From assembly GCA_964365955.1 (NCBI GenBank), contig CAYISA010000001.1, positions 18,607 through 82,606 on the forward strand: DNA of 64,000 bases, read 5' to 3'. The notes under the pieces were generated by a model that saw nothing but the letters and a program-made list of their open reading frames with translations, had not been told where the DNA came from and ran no database searches. Source of the DNA: an uncultured Candidatus Saccharibacteria bacterium (lineage in GTDB: Bacteria; Patescibacteriota; Minisyncoccia; UBA6257; GWB1-50-10). This document shows positions 42,839-47,986 of this stretch, piece by piece. Numbering within the stretch: the first letter of the stretch is position 1; each line of letters begins with the position of its first letter. A program made the position numbers and the translations under genes.

Positions 42839-43297
42839 ATGCTTATTCCCATGACTACGGAACAAAAGAAAAAAATCGTATCCGTTGCTCGCGCGCTTGT
42901 CGGTAAGTCATACGTGTACGGCGCCGCGCCGGAAAATGTTCCAAACGCATTCGATTGCTCATCGTTTACGCAATATGTTTTCGGGCAGATAGGAATCCAA
43001 CTTCCACGCAGTGCTATCCTGCAAGCCGCCGACCCTAACGGAAAAGAAGTCGAAATTTTTCCGGACTTCCAGAATCTTGAAATCGGCGATCTACTTTTCA
43101 TGCGTAGCGACCGCGGACATTACCACGACCAGTTATTCAACGGAAAAACAATGGATATCGGACATGTCGTTCTTTATCTGGGGGGCGGAGCAATCATCCA
43201 TTCACAAAGCAAAAAAGGTGGGGTCGTCGAAGAACCCTTGAAAGAGTTCGCGCTGCAGCCGCACTATTCGGTTGTTTATATCAAGCGTTTTGAATGA
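42839..43297 (+). CDS. NlpC/P60 (C40) family cysteine peptidase, no signal peptide
   Basis: Catalytic Cys context AFDCSSFTQYVF and His context GHVVLYLGGGAIIHS. Confidence 0.85.
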   Translation: MLIPMTTEQKKKIVSVARALVGKSYVYGAAPENVPNAFDCSSFTQYVFGQIGIQLPRSAILQAADPNGKEVEIFPDFQNLEIGDLLFMRSDRGHYHDQLFNGKTMDIGHVVLYLGGGAIIHSQSKKGGVVEEPLKEFALQPHYSVVYIKRFE

Positions 43298-43815
43298 CCT
43301 ACTCGATTCCCGCTTACTCCCAACACCTGGATATTAAAGACAAAAAGTGGCGCCGCCGCTCCTGCGGAGTTGTCGCTTTCAAAATGGTACTGGATTTCTG
43401 GGAAAAACAAACATCCCCAACATTCCCAGAACTCTTGAAAAACGGACAGAAGATGAAAGCATACATTCGGGGCGTCGGGTGGAGCCATGCTGGTATTGCC
43501 AAACTTGCAAAAAAATACGGTTTTGCAGGAAAAAATTTTGATTGGTTCCTGAAAAAATCCGAATGGGCGTTCAAAAAAACCCGAATTTTTCTAAAAACCG
43601 GCCCCGTGATTGTATCGATCCATAAAGATCTGAATCCAAAGAAATCGGGGCATCTGGTGGTGGTTACTCGTATCACCGCGAGCCGCGTTTACTACCTGGA
43701 TCCCGACGCTTACGCGCGCGACAACATACGGCGCGTGGCTTCAAAAAAACGTTTTCTCGCGGGATGGAAGCGGCGCATGATCATTGTCCGCCCCCGCGGG
43801 TTGCATAGAAAATAA
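43294..43815 (+). CDS. Peptidase C39-like (papain-fold) protein, no signal peptide
   Basis: RSCGVVAFKMVLDFW (Cys) and GHLVVVTRI..YYLDP (His/Asp). ATGA overlap with the upstream gene. Confidence 0.65.
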   Translation: MTYSIPAYSQHLDIKDKKWRRRSCGVVAFKMVLDFWEKQTSPTFPELLKNGQKMKAYIRGVGWSHAGIAKLAKKYGFAGKNFDWFLKKSEWAFKKTRIFLKTGPVIVSIHKDLNPKKSGHLVVVTRITASRVYYLDPDAYARDNIRRVASKKRFLAGWKRRMIIVRPRGLHRK

Positions 43816-43841
43816 GGAATTGTTAAAGTGTAGTTGCTGTT

Positions 43842-43917
43842 GCGGGCGTGGTGTAGCCTGGTTTAACACGCCTCCCTGTCACGGAGGAGACCGTGGGTTC
43901 AAATCCCATCGCCCGCG
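43842..43917 (+). tRNA. tRNA-Asp (anticodon GTC)
   Basis: Acceptor GCGGGCG/CGCCCGC, discriminator G, anticodon arm CCTCC-CTGTCAC-GGAGG, T-arm GTGGG-TTCAAAT-CCCAT. No CCA. Confidence 0.85.
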
Positions 43918-43930
43918 CACGTGAAAAGAA
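43911..43930 (+). repeat. Direct repeat, left copy (tRNA-Asp acceptor 3' end plus trailer): GCCCGCGCACGTGAAAAGAA
   Basis: 19 of 20 nt identical to 47967-47986. Confidence 0.85.
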
Positions 43931-43959
43931 GTTACCCCTTGTGGGTAATTTCTTTTTAT
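43924..43959 (+). terminator. Terminator-like hairpin after tRNA-Asp
   Basis: 14-bp stem (AAAAGAAGTTACCC / GGGTAATTTCTTTT) with a 5-nt loop and a T-rich 3' side. Confidence 0.5.
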
Positions 43960-43963
43960 CCAC

Positions 43964-44071
43964 AATGGGATTTGAAGGGAACTCGCGCGCTCGCGAGCGA
44001 GATAAAACGCGAGTCCCTGGTTTCGGAGGAGGCGCAAATGCGGCGGGGGAGAAAAAATCCCATCGCCTGCG
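43964..44071 (+). ncRNA. tRNA-linked conserved structured element, copy E2 (unassigned family)
   Basis: The 5' arm ATGGGATTT pairs with the 3' arm AAATCCCAT. Contains hairpin CTCGCG-CGCT-CGCGAG and the blocks GGTTTCGGAGGAG and CGGGGGAGAAAAAA. Ends in CCCAT-CGCCTGC-G, a 1-mismatch copy of the tRNA-Asp 3' strand. Ends 9 nt before the RT stop codon. Confidence 0.5.
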
Positions 44072-44079
44072 CTGACAAA

Positions 44080-45144
44080 TTAGAAAATTACTTCTTTAAG
44101 TTTGTGCGTATCCCCGTGCTGCAATAACCCACGATAGGAGTTGATCGTCTCACGGCGCGGATATCCTTTCAGATTTCGCACTATCCTCCGTTTCGTGATG
44201 GTGCGAATCTGCCGATGATGCGGGAAATGAATCCATCCGAGAAAATCGACCCCGGAGGCATAAGACTCAATGGAAACTTTCTTCTCGTGTAACGAGAGGC
44301 GAAGGTGATCATGGAGGAATGCCCGAATCTTGAGTAATAACACCACGAGATAATCCTTGTTATCCGATAGGATCAGAAAATCATCGGCATAGCGAATATA
44401 ATATTTCCCCTTCAATTCCTGTTTTATAAACATATCAAATTCATGCATATAAATGTTTGCGAGGAGCTGGGATGTGAGATTCCCCAAGGGAAGTCCAAGG
44501 CCAGACCGCACCATATGAAAGCTTGAAATGACTTGTCCTAAGAGCCAAAGAATATCTCGATCTCCTATATTTCGTTCAATGATACGGGTCAAAATTTTTT
44601 GATCCACGCTTGCAAAGAATCTCTTAATATCACACTTTAGGACGTAGCAGGTGCGCGTATTATTCTTTGATACTTTGCGGGCAAATGAGTCGAAGCGTTC
44701 CAGAGCCTTATGAATCCCCTTGTCTTCTCGGCAGGCACAGGAATCGTAGATGAATCGCTCTTCAAAATAAGGATAGAGAGCCCGATAAAGTACGTGATGG
44801 AGAAAGCGGTCCCGCACAGAAGCCTTATGAATAGTCCGTCGTTTCGGGTCCGAGACGTGGAATTCGGAATAGGGTCCATGAACATATGTTTTGTAAAGAA
44901 GGTCTCGGTGAAGCGACACAAGATTGTCTGAGAGGCATGCCTCGAATCCCGCCACATCCTTTTTGTGTCGTTTACCGCAGAGAAACCGTTCCCACGTTGC
45001 AAGGAGATTTTCTATGGTTATGATATCTTGGTAAGTATGAATAATCGTAGTAATAGTGCTGTACCCCCCCGCACAAGGGAAACTCCGCTTGTACTTTTGA
45101 AGGTAAAAGAAACATACCGAACGTGGCATACCCACCTCGCGCAT
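44080..45144 (-). CDS. Diversity-generating retroelement reverse transcriptase
   Basis: RT motifs are present, including the DGR-typical LPLGNLTSQLLANIYM (xGxxxSQ) and YIRYADDFLIL. The N-terminus IENLLATWERFLCGKRHKKDV parallels Bordetella Brt WENLLDAYRK. Alternative start at ATG 45129. Confidence 0.9.
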   Translation of the reverse strand: MREVGMPRSVCFFYLQKYKRSFPCAGGYSTITTIIHTYQDIITIENLLATWERFLCGKRHKKDVAGFEACLSDNLVSLHRDLLYKTYVHGPYSEFHVSDPKRRTIHKASVRDRFLHHVLYRALYPYFEERFIYDSCACREDKGIHKALERFDSFARKVSKNNTRTCYVLKCDIKRFFASVDQKILTRIIERNIGDRDILWLLGQVISSFHMVRSGLGLPLGNLTSQLLANIYMHEFDMFIKQELKGKYYIRYADDFLILSDNKDYLVVLLLKIRAFLHDHLRLSLHEKKVSIESYASGVDFLGWIHFPHHRQIRTITKRRIVRNLKGYPRRETINSYRGLLQHGDTHKLKEVIF

Positions 45145-45435
45145 ATTTCTCGCATTGATCGGAATACGATAGGAATTCGTATTGACGAGACGTTCCTTTC
45201 TCTCTTGGAGCTTACGTTCCGAGCGTGTTTTGCGGCGGATAAATTTGAGAAGCTATCCATGGTGTCAAATGCTATTGCGAAATCTGACATCCTCAAATTC
45301 TTCCTGCAACTTGCATGGGAGGGAAAGACACTGGATCACGCGCTCTACGGAAAACTGCTTCTCGATTTAGATGAAATCGGCCGGATGCTCGGAGGGTGGA
45401 AACGAACCTTGTCTAGCAAAACTCCCGCGAAATAG
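45037..45435 (+). CDS. avd: Avd-like four-helix-bundle accessory protein
   Basis: ETYRTWHTHLAHISRIDRNTIGIRIDETFLSLLELTFRA...LDEIGRMLGGWKRTL matches the four-helix-bundle / S23-IVS family used as the DGR accessory variability determinant. Start uncertain (ATG 45037 or TTG 45097; the listed ORF starts at 44965). Confidence 0.75.
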   Translation: MNNRSNSAVPPRTRETPLVLLKVKETYRTWHTHLAHISRIDRNTIGIRIDETFLSLLELTFRACFAADKFEKLSMVSNAIAKSDILKFFLQLAWEGKTLDHALYGKLLLDLDEIGRMLGGWKRTLSSKTPAK

Positions 45436-45455
45436 CGGGAGAAATCATATGCGTA

Positions 45456-45574
45456 GCAGAAACAGAGCACGCAGTTGTCAGAATTCCAGTCATTCTCGAA
45501 GTTGCCGAGGTTGAACTTGTAGTCACCGTCCGAGTTGCGGTTCACGTTCGGCACCCTGTGGTTACCGTCGGCGT
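45456..45574 (-). repeat. DGR template repeat (TR)
   Basis: 119 bp homologous to both VRs. In coding sense it encodes DGNHRVPNVNRNSDGDYKFNLGNFENDWNSDNCVLCFC, with nine Asn (AAC/AAT) codons. Every internal difference from the VRs is at a TR adenine (T on the + strand). Confidence 0.9.
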
Positions 45575-45904
45575 GTCGTCATGGTATATACGACGCATCA
45601 TCCAGTCCACCGGAGAGAACGCCTGTCCTCCCCTGCATTTCATTCGGAGTCTTTGAATACTCCCGAATGCATCGTACCGACGGATATGATTTTTTCATGA
45701 GGGATGGCGCGCGCGCATAAGGCGTACCCGATGCGTTCCTGGCCTATTTTCGCTCACGGGAATTCGATGACATGAAGCCGTAACCGCATGTTCGAATCCA
45801 ATTCCGTCGTTAGTATATATAAAAACCCCCTCGTTTGCACGAGAGGGTCGAATCTAAGGAACTAATCGGACAAGAACTTATCCAATCGTCCGAGTGTCTG
45901 AGTA

Positions 45905-46573
45905 CTACTCACCGTCGCAGAAACAGAGCACGCAGTAGTCAGAACCCCAGTCACGCTCGAAGTCGCCGAGGCTGAACTCGCAGTCACCGACCGAGTAGCG
46001 GAACACGCGCGGCACCCTGTGGTCACCGCCGGCGTCAACCCAGAGAGCGTTCTTCTCGTCGAAGGAGACGTAGAATTTTCCTTTCGGAAGTTCATCTTTC
46101 TTCTCCTGATAGACGAGGGAGGCACCCTGAGCACCGACGAGAATCGCGTTCTGAGACCGCAAAAGGTTCATGTGATCTTCGGAGGTCACGCTACCCTTCT
46201 TGATTCCGAAGACTTTGACCTTGTAGGTCTTCCCGGGAACCAGTTGGGTGGTCGCCTTGGCGAAGTGTGAGTCCGTGATGTCGGTGTTGTAATAGTAGAA
46301 GCCCTTGCGGTACTTCTGTTCGAAGGTCGCAAGCTGGGTTCCATGGACATAGTCCTTGGGAACCGTAAGCGCGAACTCTTTGAGGTGCTCGTAGCGCGGA
46401 TCGATGAGGTTGGCCCCGTCAAACTTTCCCTCAATCGCATTTTGAAGATGCAGTTTGAGGAGATGCGGATTGAAGGGGTACCCACTCGGTTGGCGGAGTT
46501 GACGGGCGATTTTAAAAATCTGCCCGGTAATCGACTCGTATAAGTCGCCTGCGACAATCGGTTTCGTTGCCAT
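45905..46573 (-). CDS. DGR variable protein 1 (target gene, VR at the C-terminus)
   Basis: Start set to ATG 46573, preceded by AAGGA. The C-terminus ..GGDHRVPRVFRYSVGDCEFSLGDFERDWGSDYCVLCFCDGE carries VR1. Paralog of 46832-47683. Confidence 0.85.
   Translation of the reverse strand: MATKPIVAGDLYESITGQIFKIARQLRQPSGYPFNPHLLKLHLQNAIEGKFDGANLIDPRYEHLKEFALTVPKDYVHGTQLATFEQKYRKGFYYYNTDITDSHFAKATTQLVPGKTYKVKVFGIKKGSVTSEDHMNLLRSQNAILVGAQGASLVYQEKKDELPKGKFYVSFDEKNALWVDAGGDHRVPRVFRYSVGDCEFSLGDFERDWGSDYCVLCFCDGE
45917..46035 (-). repeat. DGR variable repeat VR1
   Basis: Offset of +461 from the TR. 17 mismatches, all at TR + strand T (coding-strand A). Confidence 0.9.
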
Positions 46574-46831
46574 GACGATATTCCTTTCTGTTAATGAACG
46601 CTTGGAGACTGCCAAGTCAGGTGTAAGGGTATCTTACGGTCTAAAGAGTAGTATAGTAATTATATATTGTCAAGCATAAAGATTCGAATCAACGGGCCTA
46701 TCCCCTACCAAAACCCCTACAAATGGAGGGTAAATCGATGTATAAAAAATGCCTCTCGTTTGCACGAGAGGCATGAATCTAAGGGTCGAAAAACCCTAAG
46801 GGCATACATAATGGACGTAAGCGCCAAAGAA

Positions 46832-47683
46832 TTATTCGCCGTCGCAGAAACAGAGCACGCAGTCGGCAGAATTCCAGCCACCCTCGAAGTAGCCGAGGTT
46901 GAACTCGTAGTCACCGACCGAGAGGCGGTACACGTGCGGCACCCTGTGGTCACCGTCGGGGTCTTTCCAGAGCGCTTCCTTCTTATCAAAGGAGAGGGTC
47001 CACTTGCCGACCGGAAACTCGTCTTTCTTGAGTTGCCAGGCAAGCGAGAGACCATGGGCTCCGACAAAGATCGCTTTCTCGCGGGCATACACTCCCATCA
47101 ATTCCTCCGAGGTGGATCGAGAACCGATGTTCACGATCTTGACCTTGTAAGTTTTGCCGGGGACAAGCTTCTGCGTCGCGTTCCGGAAATTCTTGTCGGT
47201 CACGTCATCGTTGAAGGAGTAGAAATCTCTGAGCTTCAACGAGTCGAGCTGTCTCTCGTGCCGATAGTTCTTCGGAACCGTGAGAGAGAAGGTCTTCAAG
47301 ACCATGAATCTCTGGAGGAGAAGCTGCTTTCGCGCTTTCTCCTGCCAGTCCTTCGGACCGTTCTTCACAATATACTCGAGATCATCCGTCTGAAATGCGC
47401 CGGAGGCAAACATCTTGCCCCAATGCGCGTCGAAATTCTGAAGCTTCTTTGCGATCTCTTCGGGAACCTTGTGGAGATTCCAGAAATCCCGGACTTCGTG
47501 CTCGCGGCCTTTGCCGTCCAGTTCGAAGAATAGATCGATGGCACCATGACCCAAGACATCGTTATCACGACACTCCGTGAATTTCTTTTTCCCCTCTTCG
47601 GAGAAAACCTCTTTGTCGGTGAGATAGAAAAGCACGGAGGTACCATTCTTCTCTACCTTTTTCCATGATATGAAATCGCACAT
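46832..47683 (-). CDS. DGR variable protein 2 (target gene, VR at the C-terminus)
   Basis: Start set to ATG 47683, preceded by AGGAAGGAG. The C-terminus ..DGDHRVPHVYRLSVGDYEFNLGYFEGGWNSADCVLCFCDGE carries VR2. Confidence 0.85.
   Translation of the reverse strand: MCDFISWKKVEKNGTSVLFYLTDKEVFSEEGKKKFTECRDNDVLGHGAIDLFFELDGKGREHEVRDFWNLHKVPEEIAKKLQNFDAHWGKMFASGAFQTDDLEYIVKNGPKDWQEKARKQLLLQRFMVLKTFSLTVPKNYRHERQLDSLKLRDFYSFNDDVTDKNFRNATQKLVPGKTYKVKIVNIGSRSTSEELMGVYAREKAIFVGAHGLSLAWQLKKDEFPVGKWTLSFDKKEALWKDPDGDHRVPHVYRLSVGDYEFNLGYFEGGWNSADCVLCFCDGE
46844..46962 (-). repeat. DGR variable repeat VR2
   Basis: Offset of +1388 from the TR. 13 mismatches at TR + strand T, plus one C/G difference at the distal edge (45572 vs 46960). 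Confidence 0.9.
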
Positions 47684-47966
47684 ATGTGACTCCTTCCTAG
47701 GAATTGTGAGGGAAACAGTGTATTTAGTTCGTAAGGTTTCTGACACCAGGTTAGCATATTGTTTCTATTTTGTCAAATCTATGTAGCAAAAGCATATAGA
47801 ACAGAGGTATTTAGCTGCTCTAGTATTCCTTACTATCTCTGTAAAATCTTTGGAAATAACGGAAAATGTGGTAGGAATAATCAAGTTAATACAATCGCTC
47901 GTAGGTCTGGAATATAAATTGATGTATCATTTCTCCTCTCAAATGCGGTTTTAACATCGTCCACTA

Positions 47967-47986
47967 GCCCGCGCAAGTGAAAAGAA
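47967..47986 (+). repeat. Direct repeat, right copy: GCCCGCGCAAGTGAAAAGAA
   Basis: 19 of 20 nt identical to 43911-43930. Preceded by TCCACTA, a degenerate match to the tRNA-Asp T-stem 3' strand TCCCATC. Confidence 0.85.

Follow-up and report, generated by a model that had tools for sequence, protein, structure and literature searches.

A reverse-strand avd gene and a predicted structured RNA 5' of the template repeat in a Patescibacteria diversity-generating retroelement

When avd lies on the opposite strand between the template repeat and the reverse transcriptase gene of a diversity-generating retroelement (DGR), does the RNA of that interval, which is then the antisense of avd, act as the priming spacer of the element? 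The question is raised by a stretch of 64,000 nucleotides (nt) from an uncultured Candidatus Saccharibacteria bacterium (GenBank assembly GCA_964365955.1, contig CAYISA010000001.1, positions 18,607 to 82,606), referred to here as the window, which contains one complete DGR: two target genes, each with a variable repeat (VR), then the template repeat (TR), avd on the reverse strand and the gene of the reverse transcriptase (RT). A first-pass annotation of the sequence placed the RT, the TR and both targets on the minus strand and avd on the plus strand between the TR and the RT, head-to-head with the RT, and the coordinates confirm this arrangement (Table 1). It also regarded the layout as a departure from the canonical one, and put the antisense of avd in the place of the priming spacer of the Bordetella system. 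Our results point to another answer on both matters. The element is very probably an ordinary DGR of the Patescibacteria, or Candidate Phyla Radiation (CPR), in the architecture known as B3, with the TR on a self-contained RNA and with the antisense of avd not serving as a spacer.

The mismatches between the TR and the VRs of the window fall on TR adenines in 30 cases out of 33. Relative to the TR, one VR is changed at 13 adenines and the other at 17; both are still in frame, and each lies at the 3' end of its target open reading frame (ORF). DGR-type RTs have the catalytic YxDD and the motif [LI]GxxxSQ, which the literature treats as diagnostic. Both are present in the RT of the window (Y252 A253 D254 D255; G221 N222 L223 S225 Q226), and YADD and LGNLTSQ are invariant across the RT relatives in the alignment (A2). 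The two target genes are paralogous and share the minus strand, and neither of their proteins matched a Pfam or NCBIfam family.

The plus-strand ORF that ends at 45435 is a genuine avd gene. Its product matched Pfam bAvd with E=8e-8 and NCBIfam DivGenRetAVD with E=1.6e-12 over 100 of the 104 profile positions, at scores (33 and 47.6 bits) that lie under the curated cut-offs of 40 and 80, respectively. The ORF is conserved as a protein, with 417 homologues, every one of which carries PF22296. The AlphaFold2 (AF2) model is a four-helix bundle (pLDDT 86.9), which Foldseek superposes on the Avd of Bordetella phage (4dwl; TM 0.82, root-mean-square deviation 2.2 Å); the fold also matches 8ubb, which is Avd within the DGR ribonucleoprotein. 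A profile search of the PDB with the Avd alignment returned nothing at E<=0.01, the link to the Avd structures coming from the fold search alone. No second Avd or other domain was found among the remaining ORFs in 44600-45720, including any better-supported Avd homologue on the minus strand, and the four-helix-bundle Avd that the first-pass annotation had placed on the plus strand is upheld by Pfam, NCBIfam, AF2 and Foldseek alike.

Relatives of the element were collected by means of the RT, which gave 117 related loci, 37 from genomes and 80 from metagenomes. Metagenome-assembled genomes of Paceibacterota, Nomurabacteria, Zambryskibacteria and Minisyncoccia are among the sources of these relatives. 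Counting the window, an avd homologue was detectable in 89 of 118 sources, with RT identity down to about 37-41%. All 89 loci have avd directly upstream of the RT and oriented oppositely to it; a co-oriented avd was never seen. The repeat beside the avd stop codon, in the reading of the RT strand, is the TR in 56 loci, where 999 of 1033 mismatches are at TR adenines, and the TR and its partner repeat share a strand in 56 of 58 pairs. The reverse orientation of avd is thus no error of assembly but an ancestral trait of a large clade.

This layout is already known. Wu et al. (NAR 2018, PMC5758913) described architecture B3 as TR-(avd)-RT, the parentheses indicating the reverse strand, and found it in 90% of their set of CPR DGRs. 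The window agrees with B3 in how TR, avd and RT are ordered and oriented, in the targets upstream on the TR strand, in the lack of other accessory genes and in the CPR host, and no difference in layout was found. NCBI lists both proteins under 'Patescibacteria group bacterium' (MEK7465176.1, four helix bundle protein, 132 aa; MEK7465177.1, reverse transcriptase, 349 aa), and the record of this genome already shows avd and the RT annotated head-to-head. The orientation of avd that had been flagged as unusual is therefore the norm for this lineage, ordinary here and without novelty, a textbook arrangement for CPR DGRs that stands in public annotation. Features that are lacking from Wu et al. are the interlocked start codons of avd and the RT, a hairpin at the avd stop codon, an RNA 5' of the TR and a simple-sequence repeat (SSR) at the avd/RT junction (in a text search of that paper, secondary structure, spacer and hairpin are unmentioned). 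The RNA and the repeat are the parts that deserve the attention of specialists.

Strong conservation among the relatives extends over about 200 nt on the 5' side of the TR. RNAalifold predicted 47 pairs in this region, 34 of which show compensatory double changes, with a covariation term of -12.1 kcal/mol. For the 3' domain, 97.7% of the cells of a MAFFT alignment (A5) are paired, compared with 83% after shuffling and 34-51% when the partners are slid, and compensatory changes occur at 18 of the 26 pairs. Exact regular expressions were too strict for locating this RNA (13 of 84 loci matched) and were replaced by a covariance model of the 3' domain, R1. The model gives a single match per locus, which without exception shares the strand of the TR and directly precedes it, and one match in the 64-kb window. 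R1 matched 65 of the 72 loci that extend at least 400 nt past the avd stop codon, and 76 of the 124 sources searched; it could be used for locating TRs. In the resulting alignment (A6, 57 sequences), compensatory changes were counted at 24 of the 26 pairs.

Two points weigh against this structure. Alignment A6 was fitted to the R1 model, which inflates its pair counts, and the single-sequence fold of the window RNA is no more stable than that of shuffled sequences (z = -0.56), an uninformative outcome; the evidence for the structure is wholly comparative. From the covariation, we are highly confident that a two-domain structured RNA of about 175 nt, predicted from 45758 to 45585 on the minus strand, is real. 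It is apparently undescribed. A scan against Rfam 15, including the motifs RT-1 to RT-19 of Weinberg et al., gave only chance-level matches at E<=10 in 45380-45900, tRNA-Asp alone reached the gathering score in 43700-47900, and no description of a structured RNA 5' of the TR was found in the literature searched.

This RNA is linked to the other side of the TR by a long-range duplex. The A-rich segment AAAUCAUAU is complementary over 9 bp to AUAUGAUUU, and the duplex encloses the 3' RNA domain and the TR and adjoins a terminator-like hairpin. In other lineages the pairing is kept by changes on both strands (AAAUCAAAU/AUUUGAUUU, AAAUGAAGA/UCUUCAUUU, AAAUACGG/CCGUGUUU and AAAAGAAAA/UUUUCUUUU). 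The mean duplex score of loci with their own partner is 6.64, compared with 5.10 +/- 0.18 for permuted partners, and none of 2000 permutations reached the observed value. A point against the duplex is that its contiguous part is only 4-6 bp long in about half of the loci. The 5' strand is followed by an invariant GUCGGU segment. In Bordetella phage, a 20-nt piece of avd located 5' of the TR pairs with the spacer (Handa et al., PMC6182149; bioRxiv 10.1101/2023.10.23.563531); a duplex between the two sides of the TR is found here as well, with a 5' strand that is not adjacent to the TR but about 110 nt away from it.

A hairpin followed by a U-run stands directly past the TR in 77 of 83 loci, with stem sequences that differ widely. 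The same combination is found in 13% of random 103-nt windows, and in 2 of the 83 loci on the avd-sense strand. In the window, the hairpin is placed so that its loop covers the avd stop codon (45433-45435), read in antisense. The element looks like an intrinsic terminator. Handa et al. predicted an Avd-binding stem-loop just 3' of many TRs, and the hairpin could be this stem-loop instead of a terminator, which counts against the terminator reading, or it may combine the two functions.

According to Handa et al., both Avd and the RT of Bordetella phage are bound by the 140 nt 3' of the TR, which also provide the priming adenosine. To see if antisense avd is under a comparable constraint, the entropy of third positions among synonymous codons was computed from a codon alignment of 74 distinct avd genes. 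This entropy is near maximal throughout the gene, at about 1.9 bits for four-fold sites and about 0.9-1.0 for two-fold sites, and drops to 0.3-0.6 in the last six codons or so (CAA AAA AAA ACT CCC, the antisense of GGGAGUUUU), at the site of the hairpin. No constraint at the RNA level was found in antisense avd beyond these codons in the 74-gene alignment. Hence a spacer of about 140 nt of the Bordetella type was not recovered 3' of the TR, where antisense avd is unconstrained beyond about 20 nt and a U-run follows the hairpin. A function of antisense avd as the priming spacer is not supported by these comparisons; the unconstrained synonymous sites, the hairpin with its U-run and the covarying RNA 5' of the TR all speak against the proposal that it replaces the Bordetella spacer.

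The DGR of Bordetella phage BPP-1 and that of the window share the Avd fold (TM 0.82 to 4dwl), a DGR-type RT and adenine-specific transfer from TR to VR. In both RNAs the TR is closely followed by a stem-loop, which in the window is a putative Avd-binding element, and the 5' and 3' sides of the TR are joined by a duplex. In BPP-1, avd is co-oriented and its 3' end is part of the RNA, while the 140-nt spacer 3' of the TR holds the priming adenosine and an RT-binding stem-loop (PMC6182149; bioRxiv 10.1101/2023.10.23.563531). In the window, by contrast, avd is antisense, the 3' flank is only about 40 nt long and ends in a U-run, and a large conserved structure is located 5' of the TR. Structured RNA 5' of the template is also a property of the msr-msd RNA of retrons, in which a duplex between the 5' and 3' parts sets a conserved nucleotide by the start of the complementary DNA (cDNA). 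The RNA of the window has the same topology, without any sequence or Rfam relationship to retrons, and its RT belongs to the DGR clade and needs Avd. Retron-like RNAs prime from the 2'-OH of a conserved nucleotide beside the closing duplex, in a branched 2'-5' linkage; what the window shows of this is the topology and the invariant GUCGGU past the 5' strand. We infer that the topology is retron-like and would represent a permutation of the Bordetella DGR RNA.

We propose that the TR would be carried by a discrete minus-strand RNA of roughly 340-380 nt, extending from about 45790 or 45758 to 45418. In it a structured leader of two domains would come first, followed by the TR, by 9 nt that pair with the leader, and by the hairpin with its U-run across the avd stop codon. 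This RNA may serve as the DGR RNA. The closing duplex would bring the GUCGGU of the leader beside the nucleotides just 3' of the TR/VR homology, where cDNA is expected to start, and the cis-acting RNA elements, which are 3' of the TR in Bordetella phage, would here be mostly 5' of it. Avd and the RT would be made from divergent genes with interlocked starts. The RT would depend on transcripts that read through the hairpin, or else on a start region of its own within the 5' end of avd. That the structured RNA is a cis-acting scaffold or primer of the DGR seems to us an evenly balanced proposition. A broader combined reading appears unlikely, in which a 5'-placed domain for protein binding and priming, retron-like or permuted, a duplex ending 1 nt from the predicted cDNA start and a terminator in the avd stop codon would operate together with a repeat that switches Avd, and perhaps the RT.

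The DGR mechanism is known from one phage, in which the RNA elements that recruit RT-Avd and prime synthesis are 3' of the template. If the B3 class has such elements 5' of the template, the ribonucleoprotein would tolerate a permuted RNA, and this class would offer a second and very abundant model for establishing what is essential.

Table 1. Positions of the features of the element within the window.
Feature	Position	Strand	Description
RT ORF	44080..45144	-	DGR reverse transcriptase; RVT_1 E=2.5e-23
TR	45574->45456	-	119-123 nt
VR1	46035->45913	-	Inside target gene 1
VR2	46962->46840	-	Inside target gene 2
Target gene 1	45905..46615	-	ORF ending in VR1; terminator-like hairpin at 45824-45849
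Target gene 2	46832..47746	-	ORF ending in VR2; terminator-like hairpin at 46749-46774
avd	45037..45435	+	132 aa from ATG 45037; other in-frame starts GTG 44965 and TTG 45097
Overlap of the annotated head-to-head coding regions (avd, RT)	45037..45129	both	93 nt
C7 tract CCCCCCCGC	45064..45070	+	In the disordered N-terminal extension of Avd
Sigma-70-like match TTGCAA-16-TATGAT	44997..45024	+	Ends 12 nt before the avd ATG
Terminator-like hairpin CTCCCGC-tatttc-GCGGGAG, then UUUU	45441->45418	-	Begins 15 nt past the TR
Long-range duplex, 3' strand AUAUGAUUU	45450->45442	-	Abuts the hairpin; 6 nt past the end of the TR/VR homology
Long-range duplex, 5' strand AAAUCAUAU	45692->45684	-	First bases of the 3' RNA domain
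Predicted structured RNA, 3' domain	45695->45585	-	Two hairpins and a closing helix of 12 bp; directly precedes the TR
Predicted structured RNA, 5' domain	45758->45696	-	21 predicted pairs, most with compensatory changes

The second feature of interest is the SSR at the avd/RT junction, which lies between the avd ATG and the core of Avd (PLVLVRAKE), in a segment that is disordered in the AF2 model. A tract was flagged in 81 of the 89 loci. In 76 of them it is the junction repeat proper, with poly-C (6-15 nt) in 63 loci, (CT)n (17-35 nt) in 10, (CA)n in two and (GCCA)9 in one; the other five are T6/A7 runs located 60-75 nt from the core and are probably a different element. The tract of the window is an interrupted C7, in frame, a short counterpart of the repeat of its relatives; seen from the opposite strand, this tract is a G-run that precedes the usual start of the RT. 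The frame of avd varies with the presence of the repeat. Among the 81 flagged loci, an upstream start is in frame with the Avd core in 28, only an internal GTG or TTG is available in 28, and no canonical start exists in the Avd frame in 25, all of which have an out-of-frame ATG that reads into the repeat. The eight loci that lack a repeat all have an upstream start in frame, and none depends on an internal GTG or TTG alone or is devoid of a canonical start.

Variation in tract length was also seen over short distances, subject in each of the following cases to possible homopolymer sequencing error: in a near-identical pair (99.3% over 2438 nt) the sole indel is a tract of G10 versus G9, in one population C7 is found in seven contigs and C10 in one, and in another G9 is found in seven contigs and G10 in one. 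In the population of RT P0155 (L141-L147), seven of nine contigs from independent assemblies stop inside the poly-G tract. A repeat-less relative (the P0230 population) assembles without breaks, in contigs of up to 315 kb. The breaks point either to heterogeneity of the tract or to failure of sequencing at the repeat, where assemblies are interrupted. The contigs of L002, L004, L013 and L014 also end in or beside a poly-G tract upstream of the RT start.

The SSR contingency loci of Neisseria, Haemophilus and Campylobacter (PMC5084427, PMC4965091) have their repeat in the 5' coding region or between divergent genes, and the tract found here is in the 5' coding region of avd. Shared with those loci are a reading frame that varies among strains and a motif that is replaced over evolution. 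Differing from them, the junction repeat is known from sequence alone, its consensus is stable in two populations, and the tract of the window is an interrupted C7. The literature searched offered no paper in which homopolymers, or phase variation of the element itself, are connected with DGRs or avd. That the repeat acts as a phase-variation switch of Avd is, in our opinion, a doubtful though conceivable proposition. Four points go against a switch: the consensus tract is invariant in two populations, the avd frame may be irrelevant in the many loci that possess an internal start, in some lineages a purine-rich tract stands at Shine-Dalgarno distance from the RT ATG, and homopolymer sequencing error may be involved. 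Should the repeat indeed scramble the avd frame as a switch, it would be a first indication of stochastic switching of targeted hypermutation itself.

A reading of the repeat as a coding feature (a proline-rich linker) or as the ribosome-binding site of the RT, rather than as a mutational switch, comes close to an even prospect, although it stays slightly below. Poly-C in frame encodes PPP in many homologues, the RT strand of a more distant subclade shows poly-G or (GA)n 8-12 nt before the RT ATG, a typical Shine-Dalgarno spacing, and the tract is invariant across samples in the two populations mentioned above. Against it, the motif changes among loci from poly-C to (CT)n, (CA)n and (GCCA)9, (TG)n and (TGGC)n are unlike a Shine-Dalgarno sequence, tract lengths differ between near-identical loci, and the upstream ATG is in frame in about one third of the repeat-bearing loci versus eight of eight repeat-less ones. 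In several out-of-frame loci (L118-L125, L126-L128), the short ORF that begins at the upstream ATG ends on or shortly past an internal GTG that opens the Avd core (...cgt taG TGC). Coupling of termination and reinitiation could translate Avd even with the repeat in an 'off' state.

The starts of avd and the RT raise the question of whether the element of the window is still intact. In close relatives the RT begins with M-F-x-H-x-Y-x-D-I-I, and the antisense of the His codon CAT is the ATG of avd; the two start codons interlock as ATG-N6-CAT, with an overlap of 12 nt, or of 18-24 nt where the RT starts a few codons upstream. The window keeps the avd ATG at 45037 as the antisense of the RT His36 codon CAT. 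At the family-typical RT start (45048-45046), where the RT begins in 16 of 16 aligned relatives, the window has ACG, and the candidate starts are ATG 45129, the choice of NCBI (349 aa), which has a Shine-Dalgarno-like GAGGTG 5 nt upstream, and ATG 45144. Use of a non-canonical codon near 45048 may be an alternative to ATG 45129. The overlap with avd is 93 nt with the former (the NCBI models) and 108 nt with the latter, because the usual RT ATG has become ACG and the ORF runs on to one of these codons. The resulting N-terminal extension, of 27-32 residues depending on the start, is not conserved as a protein: the 32-aa extension is found in the window alone and is absent from all 16 relatives in alignment A2, and in relatives its frame is broken by stop codons, even in the closest one (L038, RT 73% identical), in which the RT start has also shifted, to a different upstream ATG. 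Homologues of the RT are mostly 324-330 aa long. The overlap of 93-108 nt is real as an open frame, yet it is peculiar to this genome. The range of 33-108 nt given by the first-pass annotation is arithmetically right for canonical starts, and the long open frame that it described is present; its assertion that an overlap of this size holds whichever starts are used is valid only for ATG, GTG and TTG, and the long overlap is specific to this genome, relatives having 12-24 nt. A candidate conservation of RT residues 3-33, suggested by tblastn in four loci, was rejected, given that the alignments cross stop codons and mirror the Avd N-terminus on the other strand. Gene callers are inconsistent in this region, with RT models that range from 324 to 396 aa and avd models that begin at internal GTG or TTG codons.

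Such a start could indicate a cassette in decay, in which the loss of the RT start (ATG to ACG) silenced or crippled the RT and the overlap is a functionless open frame. The ACG at the position where all 16 aligned relatives start, an extension that is unconserved even with respect to L038, and a C tract that is short and interrupted are consistent with this possibility. It is nevertheless improbable. The RT ORF is intact and keeps all the invariant catalytic residues, the in-frame ATG 45129 is preceded by GAGGTG at 5 nt, both VRs have kept their frame, with 13 and 17 changes at TR adenines, and L038 likewise moved its RT start upstream.

How the two divergent genes are transcribed bears on whether the TR and the RT belong to one unit. 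The sigma-70 promoter scan of the region returned one site, with four expected by chance. This site (TTGCAA-16-TATGAT) is no more than suggestive of an avd promoter, whose -10 element would be embedded inside the RT gene. Its TATGAT (45019-45024, plus strand) is the antisense of the conserved Ile-Ile codons of the RT, and the first of these Ile codons is ATC in 72 of 88 genes, versus 28% ATC elsewhere in the same genes. The preference for ATC could alternatively come from constraint on a GATATC palindrome. For the RT, -35 and -10 elements were sought after the G-run: TA-rich hexamers are common, their distance to the ATG is variable, and no consistent -35 was found. No clear Shine-Dalgarno sequence or sigma-70 promoter was seen for the RT of relatives, which weighs against the reading preferred here.

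The first-pass annotation spoke of a TR-RT transcription unit, which is an assumption; a terminator-like element stands between the TR and the RT. Under such a single unit, the roughly 310 nt of antisense avd would be a functional spacer or an antisense regulator of avd. The geometry of TR, avd and RT fits this reading, as does the lack of an obvious separate promoter or Shine-Dalgarno sequence for the RT in relatives, and a stem-loop right past the TR is what Handa et al. would lead one to expect of an Avd-binding element at the start of a spacer. We regard it as quite unlikely, since the third codon positions of avd show no extra constraint outside the last six or so codons, the U-run that follows the stem-loop in 77 of 83 loci is the signature of an intrinsic terminator, and the covarying RNA domains sit 5' of the TR. 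An ordinary B3 element with a discrete leader-TR-hairpin RNA remains the preferred reading. Finally, a local assembly inversion or chimera of 44900-45460 has a negligible probability: although contigs of relatives often break nearby, which indicates that assemblers struggle here, no support for it was found. All 89 independent loci, which stem from many assemblies and whose RTs are as little as about 37-41% identical, have the same orientation, and inversion is excluded; the interlocked ATG-N6-CAT starts and the avd-stop hairpin would not survive an inversion, and the NCBI record shows the same gene order.

Some observations concern the surroundings of these features. The terminator-like hairpins of the two target genes are near-identical (45816-45859 and 46741-46784), each is about 55 nt past a target stop codon, and both belong to a 250-nt duplication with 77% identity. 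One of them has a match to suhB/mmgR in Rfam below the threshold (34.5 versus 41 bits), which is probably due to the hairpin alone. Imperfect direct repeats (CAAATGCGG...TCCCATCGCCYGCGC) flank the cassette (44080-47746) on the plus strand at 43901-43930, 44035-44072 and 47940-47986. They are similar to the 3' end of tRNA-Asp, whose gene (43842-43918) is adjacent, and look like the att-site duplication of an element integrated at the tRNA, an appearance against which counts the lack of an integrase between the flanking repeats. Just beyond the tRNA-Asp gene, genes of NlpC/P60 and C39-like peptidases (42839-43815, plus strand) adjoin the cassette.

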